Source: Gemmatimonadales bacterium (GTDB taxonomy: Bacteria > Gemmatimonadota > Gemmatimonadetes > Gemmatimonadales > GWC2-71-9). From it: a stretch of 32,000 nucleotides of DNA. Positions within the stretch are counted from its first letter, which is position 1; every line of letters begins with the position of its first letter. A program made the translations under genes and the position numbers. Shown here in pieces: positions 1-27,608 of this stretch. The notes under the pieces are model-generated. The model was not told the origin of the DNA, did not search any database, and worked only from the letters and a program-made list of their open reading frames with translations. The stretch covers positions 25,698 to 57,697 of the forward strand of contig DASSUS010000017.1 in NCBI GenBank assembly GCA_035706765.1. Direction: 5' to 3'.

Positions 1-258
1 GCGGCCGTCGGTCGCCGCCATGTAGCCGATCAGGCGGTTCAGCATCTCCCAGATGCCGTAGAGCGAGCGGCCCAACCCGCCGACGAGAATCGGCGTGATG
101 ACGAGCTGGACCGCGGCCTTGACGGTGTAATCGAGCAGCGACGCGACGGCGGTGAGCGAGGCCCGGCGCGTGAGCTGCGCGGGCCGGCGCGTCGGTTTTG
201 CCTGCTCGAGCGGTGTGGGCGTCTCGAGCGGATTCACCGCCGCGGCGTCAGTGGCCAT
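1..258 (-). CDS. Wzx-like polysaccharide/oligosaccharide flippase (MOP superfamily), N-terminal 86 codons; the gene continues beyond the left edge
   Basis: Not in the ORF track because there is no stop in the window. Hand translation from ATG at 258 gives MATDAAAVNPLETPTPLEQAKPTRRPAQLTRRASLTAVASLLDYTVKAAVQLVITPILVGGLGRSLYGIWEMLNRLIGYMAATDGR, open through position 1. A basic N-region is followed by a hydrophobic helix and an LGxxxYGxW pattern like Wzx/MOP N-termini. The ATG overlaps the upstream gene by 11 nt. GC3 is high. Confidence 0.5.
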   Translation of the reverse strand, partial: MATDAAAVNPLETPTPLEQAKPTRRPAQLTRRASLTAVASLLDYTVKAAVQLVITPILVGGLGRSLYGIWEMLNRLIGYMAATDGR

Positions 259-922
259 TGCGGCGCAGCTTCAGCCGCGACATCAGCTCCGCGGTGTTTT
301 CGTCCTGAAGCCCGGTCTCGGTACTGAGTGTGTCGATGTGGAGGTCGCCGACCTGCGCCAGCTCGCCGATCGTGCGCTCGAACGCGCGGCGGAACCCGGC
401 GGAAAAGCCGAAGATTTCGGCATCCGACATCGTCTTCACCATGTGCGGCTTGTCGCGTGTGCGGATGCGATTGGCGAGCGTGATGTCGGTCGCGTCGATG
501 AAGACGACGAGGTCGAGCATCGAGGCCCACTGGTCGATCACGCGCGCGCGCCAGCCGGCGGGCACACGATCGCCGTTGCGGTTGAAGAAGACGTCGAGCC
601 AGCTGAGCGCGAACACCGGCCCTTCGTCGAGCAGGATGACGCGGTGGCGCTGCGCTTCTTCCTCCACCACCTGGCGCAGCGCGCCGAGCCGCACCATTTG
701 CGCGATCTCGGCGGCCTTGAGGGGCGCGCGCTCCATCGTCGCGCCGAGTATCGTGGGCAACAGCGCCATCGCGCTGCGCATCAGCCGGCGCCTGGGCAGT
801 CCCCAGAGCGAAAGCCCGGACTTGATCGAGGCGTCGGCGTCGCTCGCGCCGCGTGCGAGCGTGGTTTTTCCGGCGCCGGCCGGTCCCACCAGCTCGACGA
901 TCACTGCGCGATTCCGGCTCAC
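248..922 (-). CDS. Small P-loop NTPase, kinase-like, family unknown
   Basis: This is the last 224 codons of track ORF 248..1597. GTG at 922 forms a GTGA overlap with the stop (919-921) of the upstream gene. It has Walker A VELVGPAGAGKTT, an acidic strand VILLDEGPVF, and VVFIDATD followed by the basic RIRTRDKPH. The upstream part of the track ORF is Arg/Ala-rich and overlaps the real frame of 919..2367. Confidence 0.7.
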   Translation of the reverse strand: MSRNRAVIVELVGPAGAGKTTLARGASDADASIKSGLSLWGLPRRRLMRSAMALLPTILGATMERAPLKAAEIAQMVRLGALRQVVEEEAQRHRVILLDEGPVFALSWLDVFFNRNGDRVPAGWRARVIDQWASMLDLVVFIDATDITLANRIRTRDKPHMVKTMSDAEIFGFSAGFRRAFERTIGELAQVGDLHIDTLSTETGLQDENTAELMSRLKLRRNGH

Positions 923-2367
923 AGCGTGCTCCAGAGCTCCGATTTGAGCTTCGCGACGACCTGCGGCAGCGGTTGGGCGGCGTCGATGATCCGCGCGCCG
1001 CTCCTGGTCCAATCGGTTTCGGCGGTCTTGCGGGCCCGCTCGCGGACGTAGTCGGCCGGCTCGGACGGCTTGCGGCTGACGGCGGTCTCGGGATCGAGGC
1101 GCAGCAGGAACAGCACATCGGGCGCGCTCATCCGCTCGTAGTAGCGTCGCTCCCACGCCCGCAGCCTGTTCGCGAACGGGGACTGCGCGTCGAGCGCGCG
1201 GCCCTGGAACTCGCTCGGCCCGGCGAGCGCCCACCCTTCGGGCAGGGGATAGCGCTCGCAGATCGCGATGCCGCCGCCGGCGGCAAAGCGGCGCGCGCGC
1301 CGGTAGAGGGCGTAGCGGTCGCGCGCGGTGCAGGCCATCCGCAGCAGCTCGCCGTGCGTGATGACGCGTGAGGAGGCCTGCGCGCGGCGCAGGATTTTCA
1401 GCACTCCGCCGACGACGAGCGTGGCGAGGCTGCGCGTGGGGCGGCCCAGGTGCACGTGCGTAGTGGCGAGCGAGGATTCGAGCCATGCCTCGAGCGCGTC
1501 GGCACAGGTCGATTTCCCGGAACCGTCGCCGCCGAGCAGCGCCACGACCGACCCTCCGCTCGCGAGTCGCTGACCCGTGGGACGGACGCGCCGCCACAGT
1601 CGTTCGGCGATTCCAAACACCGGCGGGCGCCAGGCGTGCGCCGAGAGTGCCTGCGCCAGCAGCGCGCGCGCGGCCAGGCGACGGCGCGGCAGCGCGCCCG
1701 GCTGCAGCGCATCGCGGCAGCGCGAAAACAGCGAGACGCTGACCTCGGGCAAGTGCCGGCGCAGCGCCGCGACGACGACGTCAGGTGAGACCTGCTCTTC
1801 GAGCCGGTCGATTTCGTTCAGGGCACCGATCAGCCACGCCGGAGTCCGGCGCCTGAGCGAGTCGCGCACCATGTGCCGCAGCGACAGACGCACGACGGCG
1901 ACGATCAGCTCGAGCTCGGGCGCGGCGGTCTTGAAGATCGCTCCGCTGCCGCCGCGATGCTGCGCGGACTCGAGCATCGCCTTCTCGAGCGGGAGGCGGT
2001 AATGGGTTCGCCAGGGCAGGCCCACCACGAGCCGCTGATAGACGTGGAGGTGAATCAACAGTCCGGTGCGCTCGTCGAGCCCGAAGAAATGCACGATCCC
2101 CGCGGCCTCTCGGCCGGCCGGTGGCAGCGCCAGCTTGAATCCCAGCCCGTTCACGACGTCCACAAAGTCCGCGTACGACGCGCTGTCGACCAGCAAATCG
2201 ATATCGCCGCGGCCGCTCTCCCAGCGCTCGCGCTTGCCGTGACCCTTCCACTGGCAATACGAGACGCCGCGATTCGCGAGCGTGGACCCGAGTCGCGAGA
2301 CGAGCGGGGCAGGGGAAACCGAACCGCTGCGCGGCGGAGCGGCGGTGGGGAGCAGGCTCAATGACAT
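919..2367 (-). CDS. Fusion protein: N-terminal pol-beta-type nucleotidyltransferase-like domain plus C-terminal thymidylate-kinase-like P-loop kinase domain
   Basis: 482-aa ORF. The N-terminal half has [20 protein letters not shown] (GxG ... DxD) then LLIHLHVY, resembling the uncharacterised NTP_transf_5-type family. The C-terminal half has Walker [16 protein letters not shown] (DRY-like) and [15 protein letters not shown], the layout of dTMP-kinase-like kinases. ATG 2367 overlaps the upstream stop by 10 nt. Confidence 0.75.
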
Positions 2368-3548
2368 GTTCCCGACCCCGTGTCGCTGAACGAGGCGCCG
2401 GCAACGGGGACGAACACCCAGTCGTAGCTGTCGATCTTCAGGGTCAGCTTCAGCACGCCGAACGCAGAGCCGCGCACTTCGCTGTTCGGGTGCACCGCAA
2501 CCGTGGGCAGGCTGGTCCCTTCTCCGCCACCGGTACCGACGATGAACTCGCGGATCCCCTTGGCGTCATCGACGGCGCCGCTCGGCGTCATGGGCTTCAG
2601 CCGCTCGTAATGGTGTGGCTGGGCGTTGAGGACGATCTCCACTCCCGCCGCGTACAGCGCGTCCCACAACGTCTTGCGCTCGCTGTTCGAAATGCCGCCC
2701 GCGGAATTGGACGATTGCCACATCGGCACGTGCCACATGGCGATGGTGCATTTCCGGCTGTTCGCGGCCAGGTCATCGACGAGCCACTGACGCTGTTCCG
2801 AGCCAGGACCGAATTGCACGAACGGCAGGTTGTCGTTGAGAACGATCACGTGCCATTGGCCGACGTCGTAGCTGTACCATCCTTTGCCCCGTTCGCCGAC
2901 CGCGCCCCCGAAGTAGTCGAACGCGCCATCGGCATTGCCCATGTTGTACTCATGGTTGCCGAGGGTGGGATGCGTCCGCGCCTTGAATTGCCCCCAGCTC
3001 GGCGAGTAGCAGTCGTCGTAGTCGGTGTCGGTGCCGTTGGGAAACGCGTTGTCGCCGAGCGTGAAGACGACGGCGTCCGGCTCGGCGGCGATCAGCGCCG
3101 CGGTGCGGTTGTCATTCGAAGAGCTGCAGTCGCCGATGTTACCGGCACCCATGAACACGACACTCGAGGCGGACGGCCGCGCCACCTCGGCGGTGGTCGC
3201 CGCGGGTGGGCTCTTCGCCCCGCGCGCGTCGGTCACCGTCAGCGCGACGTTGTAGTCACCGTCCTGCGCGTAGGTGTGCGAAGGCTTCATGTCGGTCGAG
3301 CTCGCGCCATCGCCGAACGTCCAGCTGAACGTCAAGGCATCGCCGTCCGGATCTGATGAGGCGCTGCCGTCGAAGTTCACCGTGCCCGTGGACGAGCTAT
3401 ACGGGCCACCCACGACGGCCACCGGCGGGCTGTTGGGCGGCGGCGGTGGCGGCGACACCGGCGGTGGGGGAGGCGGTGGATTGACCGTCTCACGGCATGC
3501 GACACCCAGAGCGATGAGCAGGAACACGAATGCTGGACGCGACGTCAC
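2358..3548 (-). CDS. Secreted (lipobox-like Cys) PKD-domain purple-acid-phosphatase-like metallophosphoesterase with partly substituted metal-ligand motifs (paralogue 1)
   Basis: GTG 3548 forms GTGA with the stop of the upstream paralogue and has GGGAGA 5 nt upstream; the track start TTG 3566 is the alternative. Signal peptide [18 protein letters not shown] is followed by a Pro tract and a PKD signature ([24 protein letters not shown]...[14 protein letters not shown]). The motifs read GNIG, GDNAF, GNHE, WHVP and AQPHH. The tail is [15 protein letters not shown]...DTGSGTCH. Confidence 0.85.
3423..3479 (-). repeat. Proline-codon (CCN) low-complexity tract, G-rich on the plus strand
   Basis: Encodes [19 protein letters not shown] immediately after the signal-peptide Cys of paralogue 1. 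Confidence 0.9.
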
Positions 3549-4723
3549 TGCGGTCTCCCGTGACAAGTGCCAGAGCCGGAATCGGTGAATGTGCCGCCGG
3601 CCGAGCGGATGAAACGCCAGTCATAGCCGGCGTTTTTGAGCGTGAGTTTCAGAACGCCCCAGGTGTCGTTGTTGCGCACTTCACTGTTCGAGCCCTCGGG
3701 AATCGGCCCGAACGCGTACAGTCCTTCGCCGCCGCCCGTGCCCACGACGATCTGAGGGATGCCGAAAGCGTTATCGAGCGTGCCGTCGGGCTTCTGGGGC
3801 GCGAAGCGTTGATACGAGTGATCGTGACCGTTGAGCACGAGATCCACGCCGTACTCGTACAGCGCATTCCAGATCGCCGTCACTTCGGGGCGGATCGGAG
3901 CGCGGTCCTTGATTGTTGAGAACCGCGGATGGTGCCACACGGCGAGCGTGCATTGCTCGGTGTGCGCGGCGAGCTCGGCGCGGATCCATTGCTCCTGCGG
4001 CGAGCCGGCTTCGTAATTCACGGGGCGGTCGGTGCCGGTATTGATCACCAGCACGAACCAGCTCCCGGCCGTGAAGCTGTAATAGCCTTTCGTGGGGTCG
4101 CCGGCGGCGGCGCCGAAATAGCCGTAGTAGCCGGCCGCACCCGAGGTGTTGTAGTCGTGATTTCCGGCGACGGGGCGTGTGCGGTACTTCTGCCGGCCCC
4201 ACGCCGGGTCGTAGCAGTTCGCGTACTCCTCGGGCGTGCCGTCGAGATAGGCGTTGTCGCCGAGCGGCATGACGATGCCCGGGATGGTATCGAGCGTCTG
4301 GCCCGTGGCGTCGTCGGAAGTCCGAAGGCAGTCGCCGATGTCGCCCGCGGCGAGGATGACGGGATCGCCGGTCGTGAGGTTGAGCGATGCCGAGCCGTTG
4401 GCGTCGCGCGCGTTCGTCACGCTGACGTCGACGCGGTAGTTCCCGTTGTTCGTGTAGGTGTGCGTCGCGGGAAGCGCGCCCTGCGTGCCGACCGATCCGG
4501 TGGAGCTGTTGCCGTCGCCCCAGTTGATCGAGTAGCTCCAGGGGCCCTGGTTGCTCGAGTCGCTGAACGTCACCGGGAGGGCGAACGTCGCGGCGAGCGG
4601 AACCGAGGGGAGCGTGCCGAGCGTGACATGGAGGTTGCCGCGGGGCTCGTTGGGGCCGCCGCAGGTCACGGTGACCACCAATAGAAAAACTCCGCACATG
4701 CGGACAAGGGTGCGTGCGATCAT
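3545..4723 (-). CDS. Secreted PKD-like-domain purple-acid-phosphatase-type metallophosphoesterase with all catalytic motifs intact (paralogue 2)
   Basis: ATG 4723 forms an ATGA overlap with the stop of the upstream mini-lipoprotein; the 60 upstream codons of track ORF 3545..4903 are rejected. Signal peptide [21 protein letters not shown] is followed by INWGDG...[15 protein letters not shown]. All five PAP motifs are present ([25 protein letters not shown]). The tail is [15 protein letters not shown]...DSGSGTCH. Confidence 0.88.
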
Positions 4724-4959
4724 AGTGATGCGATGGGGCCGGACTGCCAGGGGTAGTCGTGATTGTCGCTCGTGTCCTTCGGCGTCTTTTGCGGACCGGC
4801 CTTGGGAGCGGGAGCGGGTTCTTCGGGTGGCACCGTCTGCGGTTGGACCGCGGGTGAAGGTGCCGCAACGGGACGCTCCGGCTGGCGCGATTCGCGGCCG
4901 CATCCGAGCAACAGCGCTTGCAGCGCTACTGCCAGCATACGACCGTCGAATCTCGCCAT
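4720..4959 (-). CDS. 79-aa proline-rich mini-lipoprotein
   Basis: ATG 4959 is preceded by AGGAGA with a 7-nt spacer. The signal peptide has a good lipobox (MLAVALQALLLGC). The mature part is Pro/Glu/Lys-rich (PERPVAAPSPAVQPQTVPPEEPAPAPKAGPQKTPK). The stop overlaps the next start as ATGA (4720-4723). Confidence 0.65.
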   Translation of the reverse strand: MARFDGRMLAVALQALLLGCGRESRQPERPVAAPSPAVQPQTVPPEEPAPAPKAGPQKTPKDTSDNHDYPWQSGPIASL

Positions 4960-4983
4960 CGGAGCGTCTCCTATGCCGCGTGC

Positions 4984-6303
4984 TTAGTGGCAGGTCGCCG
5001 AACCAGAATCGGTCGGGCCACCGGGAGTCGCGTTGACGAACTCCCAGTCGTAGCTGTTGTCCTTCATCGTGAGCTTCAACACACCCCAGCTGTCGACGAT
5101 CTGCGCTTCACGCAGCGCTGGAGTGGCAGGGCCGCCGGGGTTGTCGAACGACCGGCCGCCGGTTCCGACGATGAACTGACGGAAGCCCGTCGGGTCGGGG
5201 CTCGCGGAACGAACGTCGGCGGGTGCAAACCGGGCGTACAGCTTGTCCTTCGCGCTGATCAGCAGATCGACACCGTACTGCTTCATGGTGCCGGCCATGC
5301 GAACCATGTTGAAGTTCTTGCCTTGCTCACCCAGGCTCGTGGTGTAGAAGCGCCGCTCCCACGAAATCACGGCGATGCACGGCTTCGTGTTCGCCGCGAG
5401 ATCTGTCGCAAGCCATTCAGCCTGTTCGGAAGGAACCTGAATTTCCTGTACGCCCGGTGTCGCGGGATCGCCGTCGGTCACGCCGAACGTCGTCGCCGCG
5501 CCATGCTCCCAATCGGACGTGTTCAGGAAGACGATGTGCCAGCTGCCCTTGTCGAACGAGAACCACCCCTTGTGAGCCGGGCCGGTCCGATCGCCGAGGT
5601 AGCCATATACACCATCAGGTCCGCGGTCGCTGCCGAAGTCACCGGTCCCAATCGCATACCAGGTCCGCGACCGGAACGCATCCCACCCCTTGCCCACGAA
5701 GCAGCTCTGGAACGTGGTTCCCGCGGTCATGTCGGCCAGATTGTTGCCGACAGTGAACGCGATCGCGCTCGTGTCGTTTTTCAGGATGTTATCGACCAGT
5801 GCCGCAGTGGCCTTCGGGCCAGCATCGCTGTTGCACGTCGAGATCTCGCCGGCGCCCACCATCGTGAATCCAGGAACTGTGGTCACACCCGTCGTCGTCG
5901 CCGTCGCGGTCGCGAACGCCGAGCTGGTCGTCGCGTCGAATGCCGAGACGCGATAGGTGTACTGCGTCGACGCCGCGAGCCCGACCGAGTCGACATACGT
6001 CGCGGCGTTCGCGGCCAGGTTCGCGCCGATCTGCGCGAACGTCGTGCACCCGGCGCCGCTGCACCGCTCGACCTTGTAGCCGGTCTCGGTGGTCGCGTTG
6101 TCGGTCCACGCCAGATCGACCCGCGTCTGCGACATCGGCGTCGCGGTCAATCCCGTCGGCGCGGCCAGCGTCGGCGGCGGCGGCGGTGGGGGCGGGGGTG
6201 GGTTGGTCACGGTGTCTTCTTTACAGGCGCCGAAGGCGCCGATCGTGCCGGCGGCGGCGAGCACCAGCGCGGCTCGAACCATGGAGCGGTTAGTGAACCT
6301 CAT
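4984..6303 (-). CDS. Secreted FN3-domain purple-acid-phosphatase-like protein with all metal-ligand motifs degenerate (paralogue 3, predicted pseudoenzyme)
   Basis: ATG 6303 is preceded by AAGGAGAG with a 7-nt spacer. Signal peptide MRFTNRSMVRAALVLAAAGTIGAFGAC is followed by 10 Pro and an FN3-like segment (PTGLTATPMSQTRVDLAWTDNATTETGYKVER...YTYRVSAF). The phosphoesterase core aligns to paralogues 1 and 2 but reads GEIS, GNNLA, GTGD, SWER and AKDK. The tail is VLKLTMKDNSYDWEF...DSGSATCH. Confidence 0.85.
   Translation of the reverse strand: MRFTNRSMVRAALVLAAAGTIGAFGACKEDTVTNPPPPPPPPPPTLAAPTGLTATPMSQTRVDLAWTDNATTETGYKVERCSGAGCTTFAQIGANLAANAATYVDSVGLAASTQYTYRVSAFDATTSSAFATATATTTGVTTVPGFTMVGAGEISTCNSDAGPKATAALVDNILKNDTSAIAFTVGNNLADMTAGTTFQSCFVGKGWDAFRSRTWYAIGTGDFGSDRGPDGVYGYLGDRTGPAHKGWFSFDKGSWHIVFLNTSDWEHGAATTFGVTDGDPATPGVQEIQVPSEQAEWLATDLAANTKPCIAVISWERRFYTTSLGEQGKNFNMVRMAGTMKQYGVDLLISAKDKLYARFAPADVRSASPDPTGFRQFIVGTGGRSFDNPGGPATPALREAQIVDSWGVLKLTMKDNSYDWEFVNATPGGPTDSGSATCH
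6172..6201 (-). repeat. Run of 10 proline codons, G-rich on the plus strand
   Basis: CCA CCC CCG CCC CCA CCG CCG CCG CCG CCG, read on the minus strand directly after CKEDTVTN of paralogue 3. Confidence 0.9.
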
Positions 6304-6498: not shown

Positions 6499-8775
6499 TC
6501 ACTCCTTGGCGCTGCGAAGCGTCAGCGGCGGTTCCTTGGTGCGGCGGACAGTGTGCCCCAGTGTTTCGATCCCGCGGCGGAGCGTCGCGCCGATCAACGG
6601 CAACGGGTCGTCCCATGCGAAGCCGCTCTTGGCTTCGCACTGAATGACCCACGGGACCCATTGGGCAAAGGACATGCCTGACGCGCGCGCGGCGGAGAGG
6701 TCTTTCCACGGCTTGCACCAGCGGTAGCCGGCGCGCGCGGGCACCATCATGGGGCGTGGCGCCCCGATCAAATCGCCATAAACGAGTGCGGGGAGGTTCA
6801 CGCCTGCGACGGCGCCGAGGTGATGCCAAAGGTTGAAACGCGGATTCACCTCGAGCAGCCGCAGCCGTCCGTCGAGGTCGCGCTTGAAATCGAACTTCGC
6901 CACGCCGCGGAATTGCAGCCGTTTCACCAACGCCCGGCCAAGCGCCAACACGTCCTGCGCATCACTGGTCTCGAGGGCGGTGCTGTCGCCGTAAGCGGGC
7001 GGCAGGGTGCGAATTTTCTTTCCCGCGAACTCGCCGGCGATCGCGCCGCGCTCGTCCACGTAGGCGTGATAGCTCTCGATGCTCGTCTCGGCGCCGGGAA
7101 TCAGCTCCTGCGCGAGCAGCGCGAGATTCGCGGCCATGATGCGCGGCCATAGCTCACGCAGCTCGCGCATGGACTGCACCGAGATCGCCTTGCCCGCGCT
7201 CGCGATCGGTTCCCAGCGCGCCGGAATCCGCACCAGCGGTTTCAGAATCAACGGGAACGGGATCGGGAAATCGTCGCCCGGCTCCGGGTCGCCCGGGTTG
7301 ATCACCCGCGCGGCGGGCACCGGCAAATCGAGTTTGGCGGCGAGCGCCTGAAACCGGGATTTGTCCACGAGCTGCTCGACCAGCTCGGCGTCGGGCACGA
7401 CGAACCGGAACGCCTCGCGCAGCCGTTCCCGATGCCGCGACACCATCAGCAGCGTCCGGTCTTCCTGATAGAACAGGCACGGCGGCTCGGGCTGCGCCTG
7501 ACCGAAGCGGACCAGCGACTCGACCAGCGGCTCCTGGCTGTCCCACGCGTTATGCCACGGGAATACGGCGCGGGTGTGGCGCGAGTAGCGCACCGGCGCG
7601 CCCGGAGGCGCGAGCACCGTGGAGGGAATGCGCGCGCACCCGAGCGCGCGCACGAGGTCGATGTCGCCGAGCACCACGGCCGGGGGGCGGGTGGGGTGCG
7701 CGGGACGTCCCGCCCGCCCGATGAACCCGGTGGCCTGACGCGTGACGAGCGAGGCTCGGCCGCGCAGCGACTGCTGCCACCCGTAGACCCGTTTCGCGAC
7801 CCTGCGCGCCTTCATGAGCCACGGCCGGCGCCCGCGCAGCCAGCGCACTTTCCGCCGATCCGGCTCGGCGCCGAACTTGATCTTGAACTCGCCGCCGCCC
7901 ATGAAGTCGAACGTGGTGCAGCCGAGCTCGATCGCCCGCTGCATCACCGTCCAGGTCATGAGCTCGGTGGGGCGATACCAGCGGTAATGCTGGCGGTGCG
8001 CCCACATCCACAGCAGCAGCTCGGTCCCTTCGACGTAGAAGATCCCCGTGGCGATGTTCACGCGCCCGCCCGGGAGATAGACCGAGATCGCGATGAGGTT
8101 TCCGCTCTGCTTCAGCTTCCGGAAAAACTCGAGCACGCGCTGCTTCCCGAACGGGACCGCGAATCCGCCGCGCCGATAGACTTCCTTCAGCTGGGCGTAG
8201 TGCTCGTCGACGAAGCTCTCATCGTCCTCGAACTTCGTGATGAGCCCGAGCCGCTGCGCGCGCTTCACGTTGCGGCGCGCGCTCATCTTCAGCTGCTTGA
8301 AGGTGCGGGCCTCGTCGTTGGGGTAGAGCGGCGCGCGGAAGGTGAAGACCGGCTCGTCCTCGAAGCCGGCGGCGCGCATCCCCTCCGGATCGAGCCCGAG
8401 GTGCAGCATCTCGATGTGATCGACGTCGTGCTCGCGCTCGAGGTACGACACGACCGACGACGCGAACGCGCCGGTGTCGAACCGGGCGGGATCGTAGGCG
8501 GGACCGAGACTCACGGTCTGCCACCCGGCGAGCGGCGAGCCGAACAGCTTCCAGCGGCCGACGGTGACGAGCAGGCCGGGGAAGCACCCTACGATTCCGG
8601 TCTCGTCCTCGAGCAGCCGATAGAGCGGCTTGCCGCAATTGCAGCTCGCGAGGGTATCGATCCACGCACGCGTGTGCGGCAGGCGGTAGTTGGGAAAGCG
8701 CCGCACGATCGCGTCCCAATTCGCGAGCTCCGTCGCGCTCGCTTCGCGCACGCGCATCGTTGCTGAAGGAGTCAT
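6499..8775 (-). CDS. Fusion protein: N-terminal FemAB-like/GNAT-fold acyl(aminoacyl)transferase domain plus C-terminal ATP-grasp carboxylate-amine ligase domain
   Basis: 758-aa ORF. ATG 8775 has GAGGAC 5 nt upstream and a 1-nt overlap (TGATG) with the upstream stop. Residues ~1-340 show FemAB/CelD-like features (WMWAHRQHYRWYRPTELMTWTVMQRAIELGCTTFDFMGGGEFKIKFGAEP). A basic linker follows. Residues ~370-758 look like a COG3919-style ATP-grasp (DKSRFQALAAKLDLPVP, PLILKP, LAQELIPG, VAKFDFKRDLDGRLRLLEVNPRF). Confidence 0.8.
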   Translation of the reverse strand: MTPSATMRVREASATELANWDAIVRRFPNYRLPHTRAWIDTLASCNCGKPLYRLLEDETGIVGCFPGLLVTVGRWKLFGSPLAGWQTVSLGPAYDPARFDTGAFASSVVSYLEREHDVDHIEMLHLGLDPEGMRAAGFEDEPVFTFRAPLYPNDEARTFKQLKMSARRNVKRAQRLGLITKFEDDESFVDEHYAQLKEVYRRGGFAVPFGKQRVLEFFRKLKQSGNLIAISVYLPGGRVNIATGIFYVEGTELLLWMWAHRQHYRWYRPTELMTWTVMQRAIELGCTTFDFMGGGEFKIKFGAEPDRRKVRWLRGRRPWLMKARRVAKRVYGWQQSLRGRASLVTRQATGFIGRAGRPAHPTRPPAVVLGDIDLVRALGCARIPSTVLAPPGAPVRYSRHTRAVFPWHNAWDSQEPLVESLVRFGQAQPEPPCLFYQEDRTLLMVSRHRERLREAFRFVVPDAELVEQLVDKSRFQALAAKLDLPVPAARVINPGDPEPGDDFPIPFPLILKPLVRIPARWEPIASAGKAISVQSMRELRELWPRIMAANLALLAQELIPGAETSIESYHAYVDERGAIAGEFAGKKIRTLPPAYGDSTALETSDAQDVLALGRALVKRLQFRGVAKFDFKRDLDGRLRLLEVNPRFNLWHHLGAVAGVNLPALVYGDLIGAPRPMMVPARAGYRWCKPWKDLSAARASGMSFAQWVPWVIQCEAKSGFAWDDPLPLIGATLRRGIETLGHTVRRTKEPPLTLRSAKE

Positions 8776-17798: not shown

Positions 17799-19667
17799 AT
17801 GGCTGTCAGCATCACGCGTGGCATCACGCGACGCCTCCCGATTGGTGCAGAAATTACGTCGGGGGGCGTTCACTTTCGGGTGTGGGCACCCAAACGCAAC
17901 CGGGTAGAGGTCGAGTCCGGCGGGGAGCTCGTGGAGCTGGACCGCGAGCCGGCCGGCTACTTCTCGGGGTTCGTTTCGGGTCTTGGGGCGGGAAGCCTGT
18001 ATCGATACCGGCTCGACGGCGGCAAGAGTTTTGCCGATCCCGCCTCGCGCTTTCAGCCTTCCGGGCCGCACGACGCGTCACAGATCGTCGATCCCTCCCG
18101 CTTCCGCTGGACCGATCACGCCTGGCCGGGTATCGCCTCGTCACGCCAGGTCGTGTACGAGCTGCACATCGGGACGTTTACAGAGGAAGGCACGTACGCC
18201 GCGGCCGCCGAGCGACTCGAGAGCCTCGTGGACGTGGGGGTCAGCGTCGTCGAGGTCATGCCCGTTGCGGAGTTCGCCGGCGAATTCGGTTGGGGGTACG
18301 ACGGCGTCCACTGGTTCGCTCCGTATCACTGCTACGGGTCGTGTGACGACCTGCGGGCGTTCGTAAACCGCGCGCACGAGCTCAAGCTCGGTGTGATTCT
18401 CGACGTGGTCTACAATCACTTTGGTCCCGTCGGCAATTACATCAACGAGTTTTCCGATTCGTTCTTCAGCAAAAAGCATCACACCGACTGGGGCGACGCG
18501 ATCAACTACGACGACGAGGGCGCCGAAGGCGTCCGTGAGTTCGTCGTCAGCAACGTGCAGCATTGGATCGCCGAGTACCACTTCGACGGCCTGCGGCTCG
18601 ATGCGACGCACTCGATCTTCGACGACTCGCCCCGGCACATTCTCCAGGATATCGGGACCGCGGCGCGCGAAGCGGCGGGGAAGCGGTCGGTCGTCATCAT
18701 GGCGGAGACGGAGACGCAGGATTCACGGATCGTGCGTTCCGTCGAGCAGGGTGGGCACGGGCTGGACCACATCTGGTGCGACGATTTTCACCACCTCGCG
18801 CTCGTGGCCGCGACGGGGAAGCGGGAAGGCTACTACACCGATTACTGCGGCAGCGCTCAGGAGTTTGTCTCGGCCATCAAATACGGCCCGCTGTATCAGG
18901 GGCAGTTCTACTCCTGGCAGAAGCAACGGCGCGGCTGGCCCGCCTACGACGTGCCGCGCTGGCGCATGGTCCACTGCCTGGAAAACCACGATCAGGTGGC
19001 CAACTCGCGCGATGGCAGGCGGCTGCATCAGCTGACGAGTCCCGGCCGGTATCGCGCGCTGACGGCGTTGCTCCTGCTCGCCCCGCAGACGCCGTTGCTC
19101 TTTCAGGGCGAAGAATTCGGTTCCAGCGCCCCCTTCCTCTATTTCGCCGATCATGATCCGGAGCTGCGCAAGCTCGTGTGCAAAGGCCGGGCGGAGTTTC
19201 TGGCGCAATTTCTATCCGTCGCGGAGGATGAGCCGGACGTCGTCGCGGACCCGGGCGATCCGGCGACGTTCGAGCGCTCGCGCCTCGATTGGTCGGAGCG
19301 GGAACGCCATGCCGGGCACCTCGCGCTGCACAAGGATCTGATCGAGCTCCGGAAGCGCGATCCCGTTCTGTCGACCGATCGGCGCGAGCTCGACGGCGCG
19401 GTGCTGGGTGCGCAGGCGTTCGTGCTTCGGTTCTTCGCGCTCGGCGCGGATCGGCTGCTGCTGGTGAACCTTGGGGCCGACATCGTGCTGGACACCGTAC
19501 CCGAACCCCTCCTTGCGCCACCGGATCGCGACCGCGGGTGGACGCGCCTCTGGCACAGCAACCAGCTGCGCTATGGCGGGCGCGGCGCTCCAGTTCCCGA
19601 AACGGAAGTAGGCTCGTGGCGGATTCCGGCAGAGTCAACGACCCTCCTCGCCCCGTCAGGCGCCTAG
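17799..19667 (+). CDS. treZ: Malto-oligosyltrehalose trehalohydrolase (GH13)
   Basis: 622 aa with VHFRVWAP, YRYRLDG, FADPASRFQPSGPH, VVYELHIGTFTEEGT, WGYDGV, LDVVYNHFGPVGNY and FDGLRLDATH. AGGAG overlaps the upstream stop, 4 nt before the ATG. Confidence 0.85.
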   Translation: MAVSITRGITRRLPIGAEITSGGVHFRVWAPKRNRVEVESGGELVELDREPAGYFSGFVSGLGAGSLYRYRLDGGKSFADPASRFQPSGPHDASQIVDPSRFRWTDHAWPGIASSRQVVYELHIGTFTEEGTYAAAAERLESLVDVGVSVVEVMPVAEFAGEFGWGYDGVHWFAPYHCYGSCDDLRAFVNRAHELKLGVILDVVYNHFGPVGNYINEFSDSFFSKKHHTDWGDAINYDDEGAEGVREFVVSNVQHWIAEYHFDGLRLDATHSIFDDSPRHILQDIGTAAREAAGKRSVVIMAETETQDSRIVRSVEQGGHGLDHIWCDDFHHLALVAATGKREGYYTDYCGSAQEFVSAIKYGPLYQGQFYSWQKQRRGWPAYDVPRWRMVHCLENHDQVANSRDGRRLHQLTSPGRYRALTALLLLAPQTPLLFQGEEFGSSAPFLYFADHDPELRKLVCKGRAEFLAQFLSVAEDEPDVVADPGDPATFERSRLDWSERERHAGHLALHKDLIELRKRDPVLSTDRRELDGAVLGAQAFVLRFFALGADRLLLVNLGADIVLDTVPEPLLAPPDRDRGWTRLWHSNQLRYGGRGAPVPETEVGSWRIPAESTTLLAPSGA

Positions 19668-21712
19668 AGCGCCCGCCCAGCCCGCCGCAGCTCCCCGTCT
19701 ACCACCTCACCCCCGAGGAGCGGCGGGACTTGCGCGCGCTCGTCGAGCACGAGTGGATCGTCACCAACGGTGTAGGAGGCTATAGCTCGTCGACCGTGGC
19801 GGGTATCGTCAGCCGCCGCTATCACGGCCTCCTCGTGGCGGCGCTCCCCAACCCGCTCGGCCGCGTGATCATGCTCAACGCGCTGCTCGATTCGGCGGAA
19901 GATGTCACCGGACGCCGCGCGCTGCTGTCGCTCGAGCCCGGTGAGTCGGCCGCGTCGGCGCCGATCGCGAAGCTGGTGGAGTTTTGCCTCGACGGCGGGC
20001 TCCCGATGTGGCGCTACGCGGTCGGATCGACCACGATCGAGAAGCGGGTGTTCATGCCGTACCGCCAGAACACGGTCGTGGTGCTGTATCGGGTGAGCGG
20101 TGAGGAGCCGGTCACGTTGCACCTGACTCCCGCGGTGCATTTCCGAAACTATGAGAGGCCGGTTTCCGAGCTCCAGAACGAGCACTACGCCTTCTCGGAG
20201 CAGGGGAAAAGCTTCCGGTTGTCGGCGCCCGACTTGCCGCCGCTCAATATCGAGATCGAAGGCTCGTACCGGTTCATCGAGGACCCCCGGCGCCGCGAGC
20301 AGATCGGCTACGCGGTCGAGGAGGCGCGCGGCTATGAGTTCCGCGGCACGCTCTGGTCTCCGGGGACGTTCGTCATGCGCATGTCGCCCGGTTCGACGAT
20401 GGCGTTGACCGCCTCGACCGAGCCCGCGGCGGTTCTGGAGTCGATCACGGCCGAGGAGGCGCTCGGGCTCGAAGTCGAGCGCAAGCGCCGCCTGATCGAA
20501 TCGGCGCCGCCGGCCGCGCGCTCGGGGGCCGCGGCGCAGCTCGTGATCGCCGCCGATCAGTTCATCATCCGGCCCGTTGGACGCGTGCGCGACACGGTTC
20601 GGGCTGAGGCCCTGGGTGACGAGCTGCGCACGATCATCGCCGGATACCACTGGTTCACCGACTGGGGGCGGGACACGATGATCAGTCTCGAAGGCCTGAC
20701 CCTGGCGACTGGGCGCCACCGCGAGGCGGGGTTCATTCTTCGCACATTCGCGCAGTATGTGCGCGACGGACTCATTCCGAACCTGTTTCCCGACGGCAGC
20801 GACGAAGGGCTGTATCACACGGCCGATGCGACGCTCTGGTTCTTTCACGCGCTCGAGCGCTACGGCGAGCATACGGGATATTGGCTGCTGGTCGACCAGA
20901 TGCTCCCGGTGTTGCGCGCGATCGCGGAGGCGCATCTGCGCGGAACGCGGTTCGGAATCGGCGTCGATCCGGAGGATGGTCTGCTGCGCCAGGGGGCCGA
21001 AGGGTACCAGCTCACCTGGATGGATGCGAAGGTGGACGGGTGGGTCGTCACGCCGCGCCGGGGCAAAGCGGTCGAGATCAACGCCCTGTGGTACAACGCG
21101 CTGTCGCTCTTGTCGCGCTGGGAATGCGATTTCGGCGATCAGGCCAACTCGCGCAGGTACGCGGAGGCGGCGGAGCGCGCCCGTGAGTCGTTCAATCGGA
21201 AGTTCTGGATCGACGACGGCGAATACCTCTACGACGTGATCGACGGTCCGTACGGGAACGATGCGGCGTTTCGTCCCAATCAGATCCTCGCGATCTCCTT
21301 GCCGCATCCGGTGCTCGACAGAGATCGTTGGGCGCAGGTGGTGCAGGGGGTGGGCGCGCGCCTGCTCACCCCGGTGGGATTACGCTCGCTGGCGCCTGGT
21401 CACCCCGACTACAAGCCACGCTACTTCGGCGATCTGCGCACGCGCGACGCCGCCTATCACCAGGGGACGGTGTGGGCGTGGCTCATCGGCCCCTGGATCG
21501 ATGCCTGGCTGAAAGTCCACCCGGACGATTACGCCGGTGCGCGCGGGTTTCTGCGCGGCCTGATCGCCCACCTCTCCGAATTCGGCGTGGGTTCGATCGC
21601 CGAGATCTTCGACGCGGAGGATCCCTACACTCCGCGCGGCTGCATCGCGCAGGCGTGGAGCGTCGCTGAGACCCTCCGCTGTCTCCTCAAGACCGAGAAC
21701 GGTGCGGTCTAA
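19616..21712 (+). CDS. Amylo-alpha-1,6-glucosidase-type glycogen debranching enzyme (archaeal-type GDE)
   Basis: HEWIVTNGVGGYSSSTVAGIVSRRYHGLLVAAL, IIAGYHWFTDWGRDTMISLEGL, QLTWMDAKV, RPNQILAISL and an (alpha/alpha)6-like C-terminal half. The start is uncertain. GTG 19616 gives a 52-nt overlap with treZ. TTG 19730 has GAGGAG 9 nt upstream. The track start 19289 is rejected. Confidence 0.8.
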   Translation: MADSGRVNDPPRPVRRLERPPSPPQLPVYHLTPEERRDLRALVEHEWIVTNGVGGYSSSTVAGIVSRRYHGLLVAALPNPLGRVIMLNALLDSAEDVTGRRALLSLEPGESAASAPIAKLVEFCLDGGLPMWRYAVGSTTIEKRVFMPYRQNTVVVLYRVSGEEPVTLHLTPAVHFRNYERPVSELQNEHYAFSEQGKSFRLSAPDLPPLNIEIEGSYRFIEDPRRREQIGYAVEEARGYEFRGTLWSPGTFVMRMSPGSTMALTASTEPAAVLESITAEEALGLEVERKRRLIESAPPAARSGAAAQLVIAADQFIIRPVGRVRDTVRAEALGDELRTIIAGYHWFTDWGRDTMISLEGLTLATGRHREAGFILRTFAQYVRDGLIPNLFPDGSDEGLYHTADATLWFFHALERYGEHTGYWLLVDQMLPVLRAIAEAHLRGTRFGIGVDPEDGLLRQGAEGYQLTWMDAKVDGWVVTPRRGKAVEINALWYNALSLLSRWECDFGDQANSRRYAEAAERARESFNRKFWIDDGEYLYDVIDGPYGNDAAFRPNQILAISLPHPVLDRDRWAQVVQGVGARLLTPVGLRSLAPGHPDYKPRYFGDLRTRDAAYHQGTVWAWLIGPWIDAWLKVHPDDYAGARGFLRGLIAHLSEFGVGSIAEIFDAEDPYTPRGCIAQAWSVAETLRCLLKTENGAV

Positions 21713-26611: not shown

Positions 26612-26874
26612 AGCGCGCAGAGGTCCTGGCGTGGCTCGACACGCGGCGCCCCGCGCCGCCGGCGAGCTTGCGCGAGCGGTTACGGGGGGCGGTGCACGAC
26701 GCGCCCGACGGGCTTGCTGCCCACCTGGCGCAGCACGGTCGCGAGCTGCTCGAACGCGTGGCGGCGCGCCCCGGCGGCGGCCGCGAGCTCGCGCTCGATC
26801 TGCTCGCCGCGGACGCCTTCGCCACGTACGCGTTCGAGGCGCAGGCTGAAGCTGGAAAGGGGGCGTCCGAATGA
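26608..26874 (+). CDS. 88-aa hypothetical protein (Ala/Arg/Leu-rich, helical-looking)
   Basis: GTG 26608 forms GTGA with the alaS stop, and its own stop forms ATGA with the next gene. GC3 is high throughout. I recognise no motif. Confidence 0.55.
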
Positions 26875-27608
26875 AACTCGATGGTGCCGGCTTGCTCGTG
26901 CTCGTCGATCCGGTGCGCACCGGGGCCGACGACGCGGCGCGGATCGGTCGGGAAGCCAAAGCCGCGGGCGTGCGCGGCCTGCTGATCGGCTCCTCGTTCG
27001 ACGGCGCGGCCCAGACGCACGACGTGGCGCGCGCGCTCCGGCAGAATGCGCCCGGTGTGCCGGTCGCGCTGTTTCCGGGCTCGGCCATGCAGCTCACCGA
27101 CCAGGTCGATCTGGTGCTGTTTCTCTCGCTCGTATCCGGTCGCAATCCCCAGTATCTGATCGAGGAACACGTCCGGGCCGTTCCGTTCCTTCAGCAGCAT
27201 CCGGTGGAGACGCTCTCGACCGCATACATCCTGATCGACGGTGGGCGCGTCACCAGCGTCGAATCGGTGAGCCAGACCCGGCCCCTGCCGGCCGACAAGC
27301 CCGAGCTGGCCGCGGCGCACGCCACGGCGGCGGCGCTCATCGGCATGCAGGCGGTCTACCTCGACGCCGGGAGCGGGGCCGAGCGCCCCGTGTCGACCGA
27401 GATCATCCGGGCCTGCCGCGCCGCCGCGCCCAGGCGCCCGCTGTTCGTGGGCGGCGGCATTCGCACGCCTGCCCAGGCGCGCGCCGCTCGTCAGGCGGGA
27501 GCGGACTTCATCGTCATCGGCACCGTCGTCGAGGAAGGCCCGCAGGGCGAGCTCGGCAAACGGGGAGGACTCGGCGGGCTCGGCGCGTTCGTCGAGGCGG
27601 CGCGGTGA
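26871..27608 (+). CDS. GGGPS/PcrB-family (poly)prenylglyceryl-phosphate synthase
   Basis: 245 aa with VDPVR...GLLIGSS, VALFPGSAMQL, DLVLFLSLVSGRNPQYLI, AVYLDAGSGAERPV, LFVGGGIRTPAQA and GADFIVIGT. This is the TIM-barrel layout of PcrB/GGGP synthases. Confidence 0.75.
   Translation: MKLDGAGLLVLVDPVRTGADDAARIGREAKAAGVRGLLIGSSFDGAAQTHDVARALRQNAPGVPVALFPGSAMQLTDQVDLVLFLSLVSGRNPQYLIEEHVRAVPFLQQHPVETLSTAYILIDGGRVTSVESVSQTRPLPADKPELAAAHATAAALIGMQAVYLDAGSGAERPVSTEIIRACRAAAPRRPLFVGGGIRTPAQARAARQAGADFIVIGTVVEEGPQGELGKRGGLGGLGAFVEAAR

Follow-up and report, generated by a model that had tools for sequence, protein, structure and literature searches.

Why should a bacterial polysaccharide operon encode, immediately before its flippase, two proteins that resemble nucleotide kinases? 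The question is raised by a stretch of 32,000 nucleotides (hereafter the window) from a Gemmatimonadales bacterium (GenBank assembly GCA_035706765.1, contig DASSUS010000017.1, positions 25,698 to 57,697 of the forward strand), in which two overlapping genes, here referred to as A and B, precede the gene for a Wzx flippase. Most bacterial capsules, O-antigens and exopolysaccharides are products of Wzx/Wzy pathways, whose core machinery is considered well inventoried; A and B belong to a large unnamed or misnamed family that is repeatedly joined to the flippase at the gene level and in some cases fused to the protein itself. We tentatively favour the reading that both are cytoplasmic enzymes forming a conserved accessory module of Wzx/Wzy-dependent polysaccharide pathways, and give it a little less than an even chance, because the genes are translationally coupled, their synteny with Wzx and Wzy extends across phyla, they occur as natural fusions and their catalytic-type residues are conserved. 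In broader terms, they probably represent an undescribed accessory step of polysaccharide export. The three genes concerned, which like their neighbours are given here in minus-strand coordinates of the window, are the following:

919..2367, minus strand: gene A (482 aa), a fusion of an NTP_transf_5-like and a thymidylate-kinase-like domain (open reading frame, sequence, homologues, AlphaFold2 (AF2) model).
248..922, minus strand: gene B (224 aa; GTG at 922), a stand-alone P-loop protein with a nucleoside monophosphate (NMP) kinase fold (open reading frame, alignment, AF2, Foldseek, hhalign).
1..258, minus strand: 5' end of a Wzx (MOP-family) flippase gene, which runs off the window (sequence and related loci).

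From an upstream metallophosphoesterase gene through A and B to Wzx, the genes are connected by a chain of overlapping stops and starts. Gene A begins at ATG 2367 and overlaps the stop of the metallophosphoesterase gene (ATGTCATTGA, TGA 2358-2360); an alternative start at TTG 2361 would yield a protein of 480 aa, as in database entry P0001. The overlap thus comprises 10 nt with the ATG, or TTGA with the TTG. The stop of A (TGA 919-921) overlaps the GTG of B (922-920) in a GTGA, and the 3' end of B overlaps the Wzx gene (ATGGCCACTGA, ATG 258-256), whose 5' end is about 59-69% identical to the beginning of the complete Wzx genes that follow B in related loci. For B, an alternative GTG at 904 corresponds to the 218-aa database entry P0121; we favour GTG 922 because it is preceded by GGAG at a distance of 6 nt and because the alignment with 224-aa homologues spans 100% of the query. 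A preliminary description of the window, made from the sequence alone, had reported these open reading frames and the GTGA overlap, and had argued for translational coupling into a glycan operon. Both genes, the overlap and every motif that it quoted (GHG… through VVFIDATDITLANRIRTRDK) are present, and the overlapping starts and stops together with the gene content of the operon bear out the coupling. Since many homologues (494 for A and 351 for B, at 46% to 90% identity) carry the motifs invariantly in alignments, we regard A and B as real genes and not as chance reading frames. These homologues come mostly from metagenome-assembled genomes of Gemmatimonadales, where A/B pairs often have consecutive locus tags. 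Both proteins are probably soluble and cytoplasmic, as no segment of either reaches a threshold of 1.6 in Kyte-Doolittle hydropathy analysis.

The AF2 model of A, built from an alignment of 36 sequences, has two domains, with a predicted local distance difference test (pLDDT) score of 88.4 and a predicted template modelling (pTM) score of 0.83. Their main features are:

922..1572, minus strand: C-terminal domain of A (aa ~266-482), a thymidylate-kinase-like P-loop phosphotransferase (Foldseek, profile alignment, Pfam).
1507..1533, minus strand: P-loop GGDGSGKST (aa 279-287), of the thymidylate kinase (TMK) type GxDGxGK[ST]T (sequence, alignment, conservation).
1249..1257, minus strand: E371-R372-Y373, counterpart of the TMK DRY motif, with R372 99% conserved (conservation, TMK alignment).
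1582..2310, minus strand: N-terminal domain of A (aa ~20-262), similar to divergent PF14907/pol-beta-type nucleotidyltransferases (NTases) (Pfam, conservation, AF2).
2188..2208, minus strand: GDIDLLV, a putative metal-binding DxD strand, invariant in the alignment and 97-98% conserved family-wide (sequence).

The dTMP-kinase-like character that had been proposed for the C-terminal half is supported by Pfam, by Foldseek and by alignment with the Thermus TMK. The best 50 matches of the A model in the Protein Data Bank (PDB) are all TMKs (E 2e-7, TMt 0.6-0.7, up to 0.71), and the A-family profile is collinear end to end with residues 3-193 of the Thermus enzyme. Residue conservation was computed over 137 A-family representatives clustered at 50% identity. 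In this set, the P-loop residues G279, D281, G282, G284 and K285 are 97-100% conserved, including the acidic third position that is also found in TMK. D350-R351 (96% and 99%) aligns with the ADR motif of Thermus TMK and E371-R372-Y373 with its SDRY (ERY or DRY within the family), and R432 and R444 in the lid region fall within the 96-100% conserved set. In TMKs, the ADR and DRY arginines grip the acceptor nucleotide by its phosphate. The position of the thymine-stacking Phe, by contrast, aligns in HMMER with a variable column (M344 in the window; M, Y, S, C, H, A, F or T in relatives), and the nearest invariant residue beside it is T347. The domain also has a longer helical insert after strand 2 than TMK. 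Its scores stay below the curated thresholds for PF02223 (22.7 bits, cut-off 27) and TIGR00041 (17.1 bits, cut-off 83.25); some family members exceed the PF02223 cut-off (31.9 for P0390 and 33.8 for P0379, in addition to many precomputed matches). Given that the phosphate-binding arginines are kept, the Phe position is variable and the scores fall short, we read the domain as an active phosphotransferase whose acceptor is probably phosphate-bearing, and not as a dTMP kinase. Thus, A shares with Tmk (PF02223/TIGR00041) the fold, the P-loop, the arginines and the lid. Tmk, however, is encoded by a stand-alone housekeeping gene of ~210 aa, whereas A carries an additional N-terminal domain of 260 aa and is encoded in a polysaccharide operon beside a flippase, which argues against a role in converting dTMP to dTDP.

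The N-terminal half of A had been described as a pol-beta-type NTase-like module, and this assignment gains support from sub-threshold matches to PF14907 and from a conserved GDxD. In the AF2 model of this domain, a helical bundle comes after an alpha/beta core that carries G42, G54-D55-I-D57, D98 and H106/H108. A K41-G42-H-G44 loop precedes G54-D55-I-D57-L-L-V on strand 56-60, as in the pol-beta-type pattern, where a G[GS]-type loop precedes a strand with [DE]h[DE]h by 9-13 residues; D98, a candidate for the third acidic residue of such enzymes, lies at the end of strand 91-98 and H106 on the following strand. W40, K41, D55 and D57 are 95-98% conserved, D98 94% and H106 91%. Out of 30 diverse A N-domains, 23 match PF14907 and no other family, with a best E-value of 2e-7 and all scores below the cut-off. 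Judged by these matches and residues, the domain is a divergent relative of PF14907 (NTP_transf_5) within the pol-beta superfamily.

Gene B encodes a second kinase-like protein, with these landmarks:

863..886, minus strand: Walker A motif GPAGAGKT (aa 13-20) (sequence, alignment).
617..628, minus strand: D99-E100-G101-P102, of which D99 and G101 are invariant across phyla and E100 is conserved only within Gemmatimonadota.
443..469, minus strand: lid-like RIRTRDKPH, with R152 and R156 invariant across phyla.

Its AF2 model (pLDDT 81.9) matches the adenylate kinase, TMK and deoxynucleoside kinase fold in Foldseek (E 1e-5, TM about 0.5), and it has no family-level Pfam or NCBIfam match. The residues kept across phyla are G18-K19, D99, G101, R152 and R156; the DRY arginine is absent. 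With adenylate kinases and deoxynucleoside kinases, B shares the fold, the Walker A motif, a D-x-G-P strand resembling the LDGFP of adenylate kinase and an arginine-rich lid. It differs from them in a long helical insert, which it shares only with the kinase domain of A, and in its invariable location in glycan loci beside A, Wzx or Wzy. The preliminary description had suggested that B might be a duplicate of the kinase half of A. Kinship and a common order of elements are confirmed: in hhalign, a profile of phylogenetically diverse B proteins and one of A C-domains share an alignment of 146 columns with a probability of 94% (E 1.4e-7, 18% identity), and both proceed from the P-loop to a G-x-P-x-R turn after strand 2, a long helical insert, a strand of the form hhhh[DE]x[YG]P and a D-hhhh…R lid. 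A recent duplication is ruled out, however, as BLASTP of A against B matched the P-loop alone and the relationship becomes visible only with diverse profiles. By this profile evidence, B is a distant paralogue of the kinase half of A.

How widespread is this pair, and what does it accompany? In a search of 1.84 billion cluster representatives (50% identity clusters), the A profile retrieved 3,766 clusters at E < 1e-3 and 1,341 at E < 1e-30, nearly all of them with the full-length two-domain architecture, and the A-B module is spread over at least eight phyla. Neighbourhoods were counted at 40 loci with a full-length A, obtained from a scan of one genome per species. They stem from Gemmatimonadota, Acidobacteriota, Chloroflexota, Actinomycetota (Modestobacter, Blastococcus, Aeromicrobium), Gammaproteobacteria (Methylobacter marinus A45), Alphaproteobacteria (Pararhizobium), Cyanobacteria (Nostoc), Planctomycetota and Bacteroidota; an exact-sequence cluster look-up and a plasmid search added Ensifer members and a Chelatococcus locus, respectively. 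B lies directly downstream of A in 18 of the 40 loci and anywhere in the locus in 22. In 17 loci a MOP-family flippase gene adjoins A or A-B, in 27 one lies no more than 5 kb away, and metallophosphoesterases of the type found in the window occur in eight, with three more loci cut at contig ends. The loci with phosphoesterases belong mostly to Gemmatimonadota, Acidobacteriota and Chloroflexota. The partnership with the PAP-like phosphoesterase trio that had been proposed from the window is only partial; the tie of A and B to the Wzx flippase and Wzy is stronger and broader. This link, like the natural Wzx+A+B and A+B fusions described below, had been missed in the preliminary description.

Individual loci illustrate the synteny with glycan genes, which is kept in at least six phyla; the conserved neighbourhood is likewise present in L001. 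Methylobacter marinus A45 has the order phosphoglycosyl transferase (PGT)-A-B-…-Wzx-Wzy, and plasmid pTAD1 of Chelatococcus daeguensis carries a tyrosine kinase (BY-kinase), A ('hypothetical'), B ('AAA family ATPase') and an 'oligosaccharide flippase', adjoining XrtA/PEP-CTERM-type FemAB and deacetylase genes. In L024 and L032, A is directly preceded by a PGT gene, and B-type genes directly precede Wzy in L009, L010, L038 and L041. A related contig, L070, whose A is 77% identical to that of the window, carries Wzx, an AsnB-type amidotransferase, a second B paralogue, a glycosyltransferase of family GT4 fused to PF14907, a CapK-like ligase and a GT2 glycosyltransferase. This gene content is probably what lies beyond the window past Wzx. 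Two of its genes are located as follows:

8280-9050 of L070: second B paralogue (256 aa), 52% identical to B and directly upstream of Wzy.
10263-12530 of L070: GT4 glycosyltransferase::PF14907 fusion (755 aa), whose PF14907 domain scores 36.1 bits, above the cut-off.

A second PF14907 domain recurs in L003, L004, L010, L012 and L019. When the GT4-fused PF14907 domain was aligned with the A N-domain profile in hhalign, the DxD strands were in register at a probability of 1.4%, which is not significant. Furthermore, a second, divergent copy of A (25-30% identity), in full or part length, occurs in L009, L026, L036, L041 and L042, the gene order in L041 being Wzx-A…AsnB-A-B-Wzy.

In their source records, relatives of A and B are named 'hypothetical protein', 'nucleoside/nucleotide kinase family protein', 'thymidylate kinase' or 'dTMP kinase'; the mis-annotation as dTMP kinase is systematic. 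NCBIfam holds no family that A, B or the three phosphoesterases match above its cut-off, and full-text literature searches found no description of the A architecture, of PF14907 in polysaccharide loci or of PEP-CTERM together with thymidylate kinase. No member of either family is characterised.

The association with the flippase also reaches the level of single polypeptides. Several clusters of 721-832 aa (P0302, P0375, P0387 and P0273 among them) and a 696-aa RefSeq protein of Aeromicrobium sp. Root495 (WP_156464734.1) combine A and B. Wzx and A are fused in two clusters (P0256 and P0331), and all three are fused in one cluster, P0270, of 1,230 aa. An independent Gemmatimonadales genome contains a corresponding reading frame:

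157-3969 of L010, plus strand: uninterrupted Wzx+A+B open reading frame (1,270 aa), 87% identical to P0270.

This frame begins with about 12 hydrophobic segments, as in a Polysacc_synt_3-type Wzx, and continues with A and B, all motifs being intact. Because the triple fusion is present in two assemblies at 87% identity, we do not consider it an assembly artefact; as predicted from this architecture, A and B lie on the flippase's cytoplasmic side. In a single case (P0269), a PGT fragment and A form one predicted protein.

The polysaccharide operon of the window is encoded on the minus strand, with A and B close to its end. Its order is a PglF-like 4,6-dehydratase, a DegT aminotransferase, a formyltransferase, a PIG-L deacetylase, a PGT, a 758-aa FemAB/GNAT and ATP-grasp protein, three PKD/fn3-metallophosphoesterases, A, B and Wzx. 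Two further genes, encoding a Wzc-like tyrosine kinase and an SLBB (Wza-like) protein, are divergently transcribed. Two of these features accompany A:

2358..6303, minus strand: three tandem PKD/fn3–metallophosphoesterase genes (2358-3566, 3545-4903 and 4984-6303) (Pfam, hydropathy).
6499-8775, minus strand: fusion of FemAB/GNAT (Acetyltransf_6) and ATP-grasp (758 aa), syntenic with A in Gemmatimonadota.

The three metallophosphoesterases are paralogous and have hydrophobic N-termini with a lipobox-like motif, and the last gene of the array is the one that overlaps the start of A. In another Gemmatimonadales genome (L006, 1245-9868), the array has grown to at least six tandem copies with extra PKD repeats. 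The 758-aa fusion, which weakly matches the XrtA/PEP-CTERM-associated FemAB family, suggests an aminoacyl or peptide decoration of the amino sugar.

What step could such a module perform? According to the reading that we favour, A and B would act at the cytoplasmic face of the membrane, their target being either the repeat unit linked to undecaprenyl diphosphate or a substituent that is to be added to this unit. Their kinase-type domains would install or extend a phosphate at the expense of ATP, and the NTase-like domain would use the phosphorylated group or a nucleotide-activated donor, such that a nucleotidyl or phospho-linked substituent is added. This would be the final step in the cytoplasm, with flipping of the unit by Wzx to follow. 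The exported phosphoester may then be processed by the lipoprotein metallophosphoesterases that are encoded just upstream in Gemmatimonadota and certain other phyla. The preliminary description had proposed that an NTase and two kinase-like domains activate or phosphorylate a small substituent or the sugar itself, complementing the phosphoesterases; this may plausibly be so, although the weight placed on the phosphoesterases is supported only in part. None of the findings that it had named as refuting was obtained: A and B have no match to a defence or toxin-antitoxin system, the pair is strongly linked to glycan loci, and orthologues conserve the catalytic residues.

Precedents for this logic exist in other pathways. 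One involves the kinase PsmK and the uncharacterised NTase PsmN, which we take to be a member of PF14907. In the biosynthesis of the lasso peptide pseudomycoidin, PsmK phosphorylates the peptide and PsmN is needed for a hexose on that phosphate, a function that requires its DxD (D134/D136) (PMC6993621). A resembles the PsmN/PF14907 proteins in its DxD-bearing alpha/beta core, in the helical region that follows and in the pairing with a kinase, and PF14907 also occurs as the GT4 fusion in the related operon L070; by contrast, the partner kinase of A is of the TMK and not of the HprK type, and the setting is a Wzx/Wzy glycan locus instead of a gene cluster for peptides that the ribosome makes and that are modified after translation (RiPPs). 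Likewise, in a family of phosphonate gene clusters, the phosphoenolpyruvate (PEP) mutase Ppm has a thymidylate kinase and a PF14907 gene on its flanks (10.1101/2021.04.07.438883). The pneumococcal lic locus encodes the choline kinase LicA, the cytidylyltransferase LicC, the LicD transferases and the flippase TacF. It thus unites a kinase, an NTase and a MOP-family flippase in one surface-glycan locus, a likeness in logic only: LicA is protein-kinase-like and LicC GlmU-like, the folds of A and B are unrelated to them, and A and B can be fused to the flippase. TacF is described as a 'gatekeeper' MOP flippase that monitors phosphocholine content (PMC13385700). A, B and their window neighbours gave no Pfam or NCBIfam matches to LicA-, LicC- or LicD-type families, and no choline transporter was found there. 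By analogy, then, A and B resemble the PsmK/PsmN, phosphonate-cluster and lic precedents in logic, not in family membership.

Several findings weigh against an enzymatic, flippase-linked role. The PF14907 score of the window A is 15.8 bits, against a gathering cut-off of 31.2, and its N-domain differs from recognised PF14907 members in that all of its matches are sub-threshold. Full-length Foldseek searches with the A model listed only kinases among the best 50 matches in each of PDB and BFVD and so do not bear on the predicted NTase fold of the N-domain, and the N-domain profile had no meaningful match among PDB sequences; the shortfall in the PF02223 score given above belongs here as well. 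About a third of the 40 A loci lack a flippase within 5 kb and 18 of the 40 lack B within the locus, so that the A-B-Wzx module is not obligatory in that form. Moreover, the loci encode differing sugar pathways, which a generic role in regulation or nucleotide handling fits equally well, and the link to phosphoesterases is limited to some lineages. How, then, do other explanations compare? One possibility, which we consider rather unlikely, is a soluble donor pathway as in the lic locus: B, the kinase domain of A or both would phosphorylate a small alcohol or a phosphate or phosphonate, the NTase domain would convert the product to NDP-X (a nucleoside diphosphate conjugate), a separate transferase would add P-X to the glycan, and Wzx may, in the manner of TacF, be restricted to decorated units. 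The mirrored gene linkage of licA, licC and tacF, the gatekeeping by TacF, the acceptor-phosphate arginines retained in A and the pair of TMK and PF14907 beside Ppm all speak for it. Against it, the window, L001, L024, L069 and L070 showed neither a phospho-substituent transferase, be it of the LicD, the Stealth or another type, nor a gene for uptake or biosynthesis of a small substituent. Its fusion to a flippase polypeptide would be unexpected, and the folds differ from those of LicA and LicC. The same fusions at the flippase C-terminus, together with the B-type genes directly upstream of Wzx or Wzy in many loci, the co-occurrence of the module with unrelated sugar pathways and the label 'AAA family ATPase' that PGAP assigns to B, could instead indicate a non-catalytic or ATPase regulatory module that docks on the cytoplasmic face of Wzx (and Wzy) and gates flipping or polymerisation by nucleotide status, leaving the glycan unmodified. 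MviN of Mycobacterium tuberculosis, a MOP flippase with a cytoplasmic kinase-like regulatory domain, sets a precedent. We nevertheless regard this as unlikely, for ADR, [DE]RY, the lid, the NTase DxD and D98 are 94-99% conserved, which is more than nucleotide binding by itself needs, and MOP flippases are not known to require ATP.

A more far-reaching form of the flippase-linked reading, which we hold to be distinctly unlikely, makes A and B physical, nucleotide-using subunits of the flippase or polymerase. They would write a transient phospho- or nucleotidyl 'export tag' that Wzx reads as a gate and that the PAP-like phosphoesterases erase outside; this cycle of tagging, flipping and untagging would be equivalent to an ATP- or NTP-gated MOP flippase. 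Alternatively, the TMK-like domains could recycle nucleotides locally, phosphorylating the UMP or other NMP released by the PGT, or the nucleoside diphosphates released by glycosyltransferases, and thereby pull the reversible priming reaction forward. A TMK-type P-loop with its acidic residue (GxDGxGK), the NMP-phosphate arginines, the PGT gene directly upstream of A in two loci and the predicted PGT-fragment::A protein are compatible with this. The idea is improbable all the same: it leaves unexplained the NTase-like domain, the second kinase paralogue and the adjacency to Wzx/Wzy over PGT, housekeeping NMP kinases already cover the job, and the base-stacking Phe position of TMK is variable in A. 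Finally, A and B might have a function unrelated to the operon, as suggested by the automated names 'thymidylate kinase' and 'dTMP kinase' and by the general occurrence of NTase and kinase pairs in conflict systems. This we consider scarcely credible. A housekeeping Tmk was rejected on account of the below-cut-off scores, foremost that of TIGR00041, of the fusion architecture, of the non-conserved thymine-stacking position and of the glycan-gene synteny. An MNT/kinase-type toxin-antitoxin or defence pair was likewise rejected, as PADLOC returned no match for A, only weak P-loop matches for B and no defence assignment, and as the context is a glycan operon conserved across phyla.

A flippase-linked enzymatic module, as favoured here, would have consequences beyond this operon. 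For many soil and aquatic phyla, A and B point to a cytoplasmic step of the polysaccharide pathways that has gone unrecognised and that could be decorating, activating or gating. They also offer a concrete, testable role in glycan chemistry for the uncharacterised PF14907 nucleotidyltransferases. The module further suggests that environmental exopolysaccharides may often carry phosphate-linked substituents and that these may often be trimmed outside the cell. Direct testing is feasible, as A and B occur in culturable carriers, namely Methylobacter marinus A45 (WP_020159490.1), Chelatococcus daeguensis TAD1 (pTAD1; WP_071924605.1 and WP_145979828.1), Aeromicrobium sp. Root495, Ensifer adhaerens and Tolypothrix tenuis PCC 7101.

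Two observations concern other parts of the window. Between an alpha-amylase-family gene and recA, positions 19289-21712 hold overlapping open reading frames on opposite strands (807 aa on the plus and 547 aa on the minus strand), the latter without a Pfam match. Downstream of alaS, positions 26871-27608 of the plus strand encode a PcrB-family protein, resembling prenyl-glyceryl-phosphate synthases.

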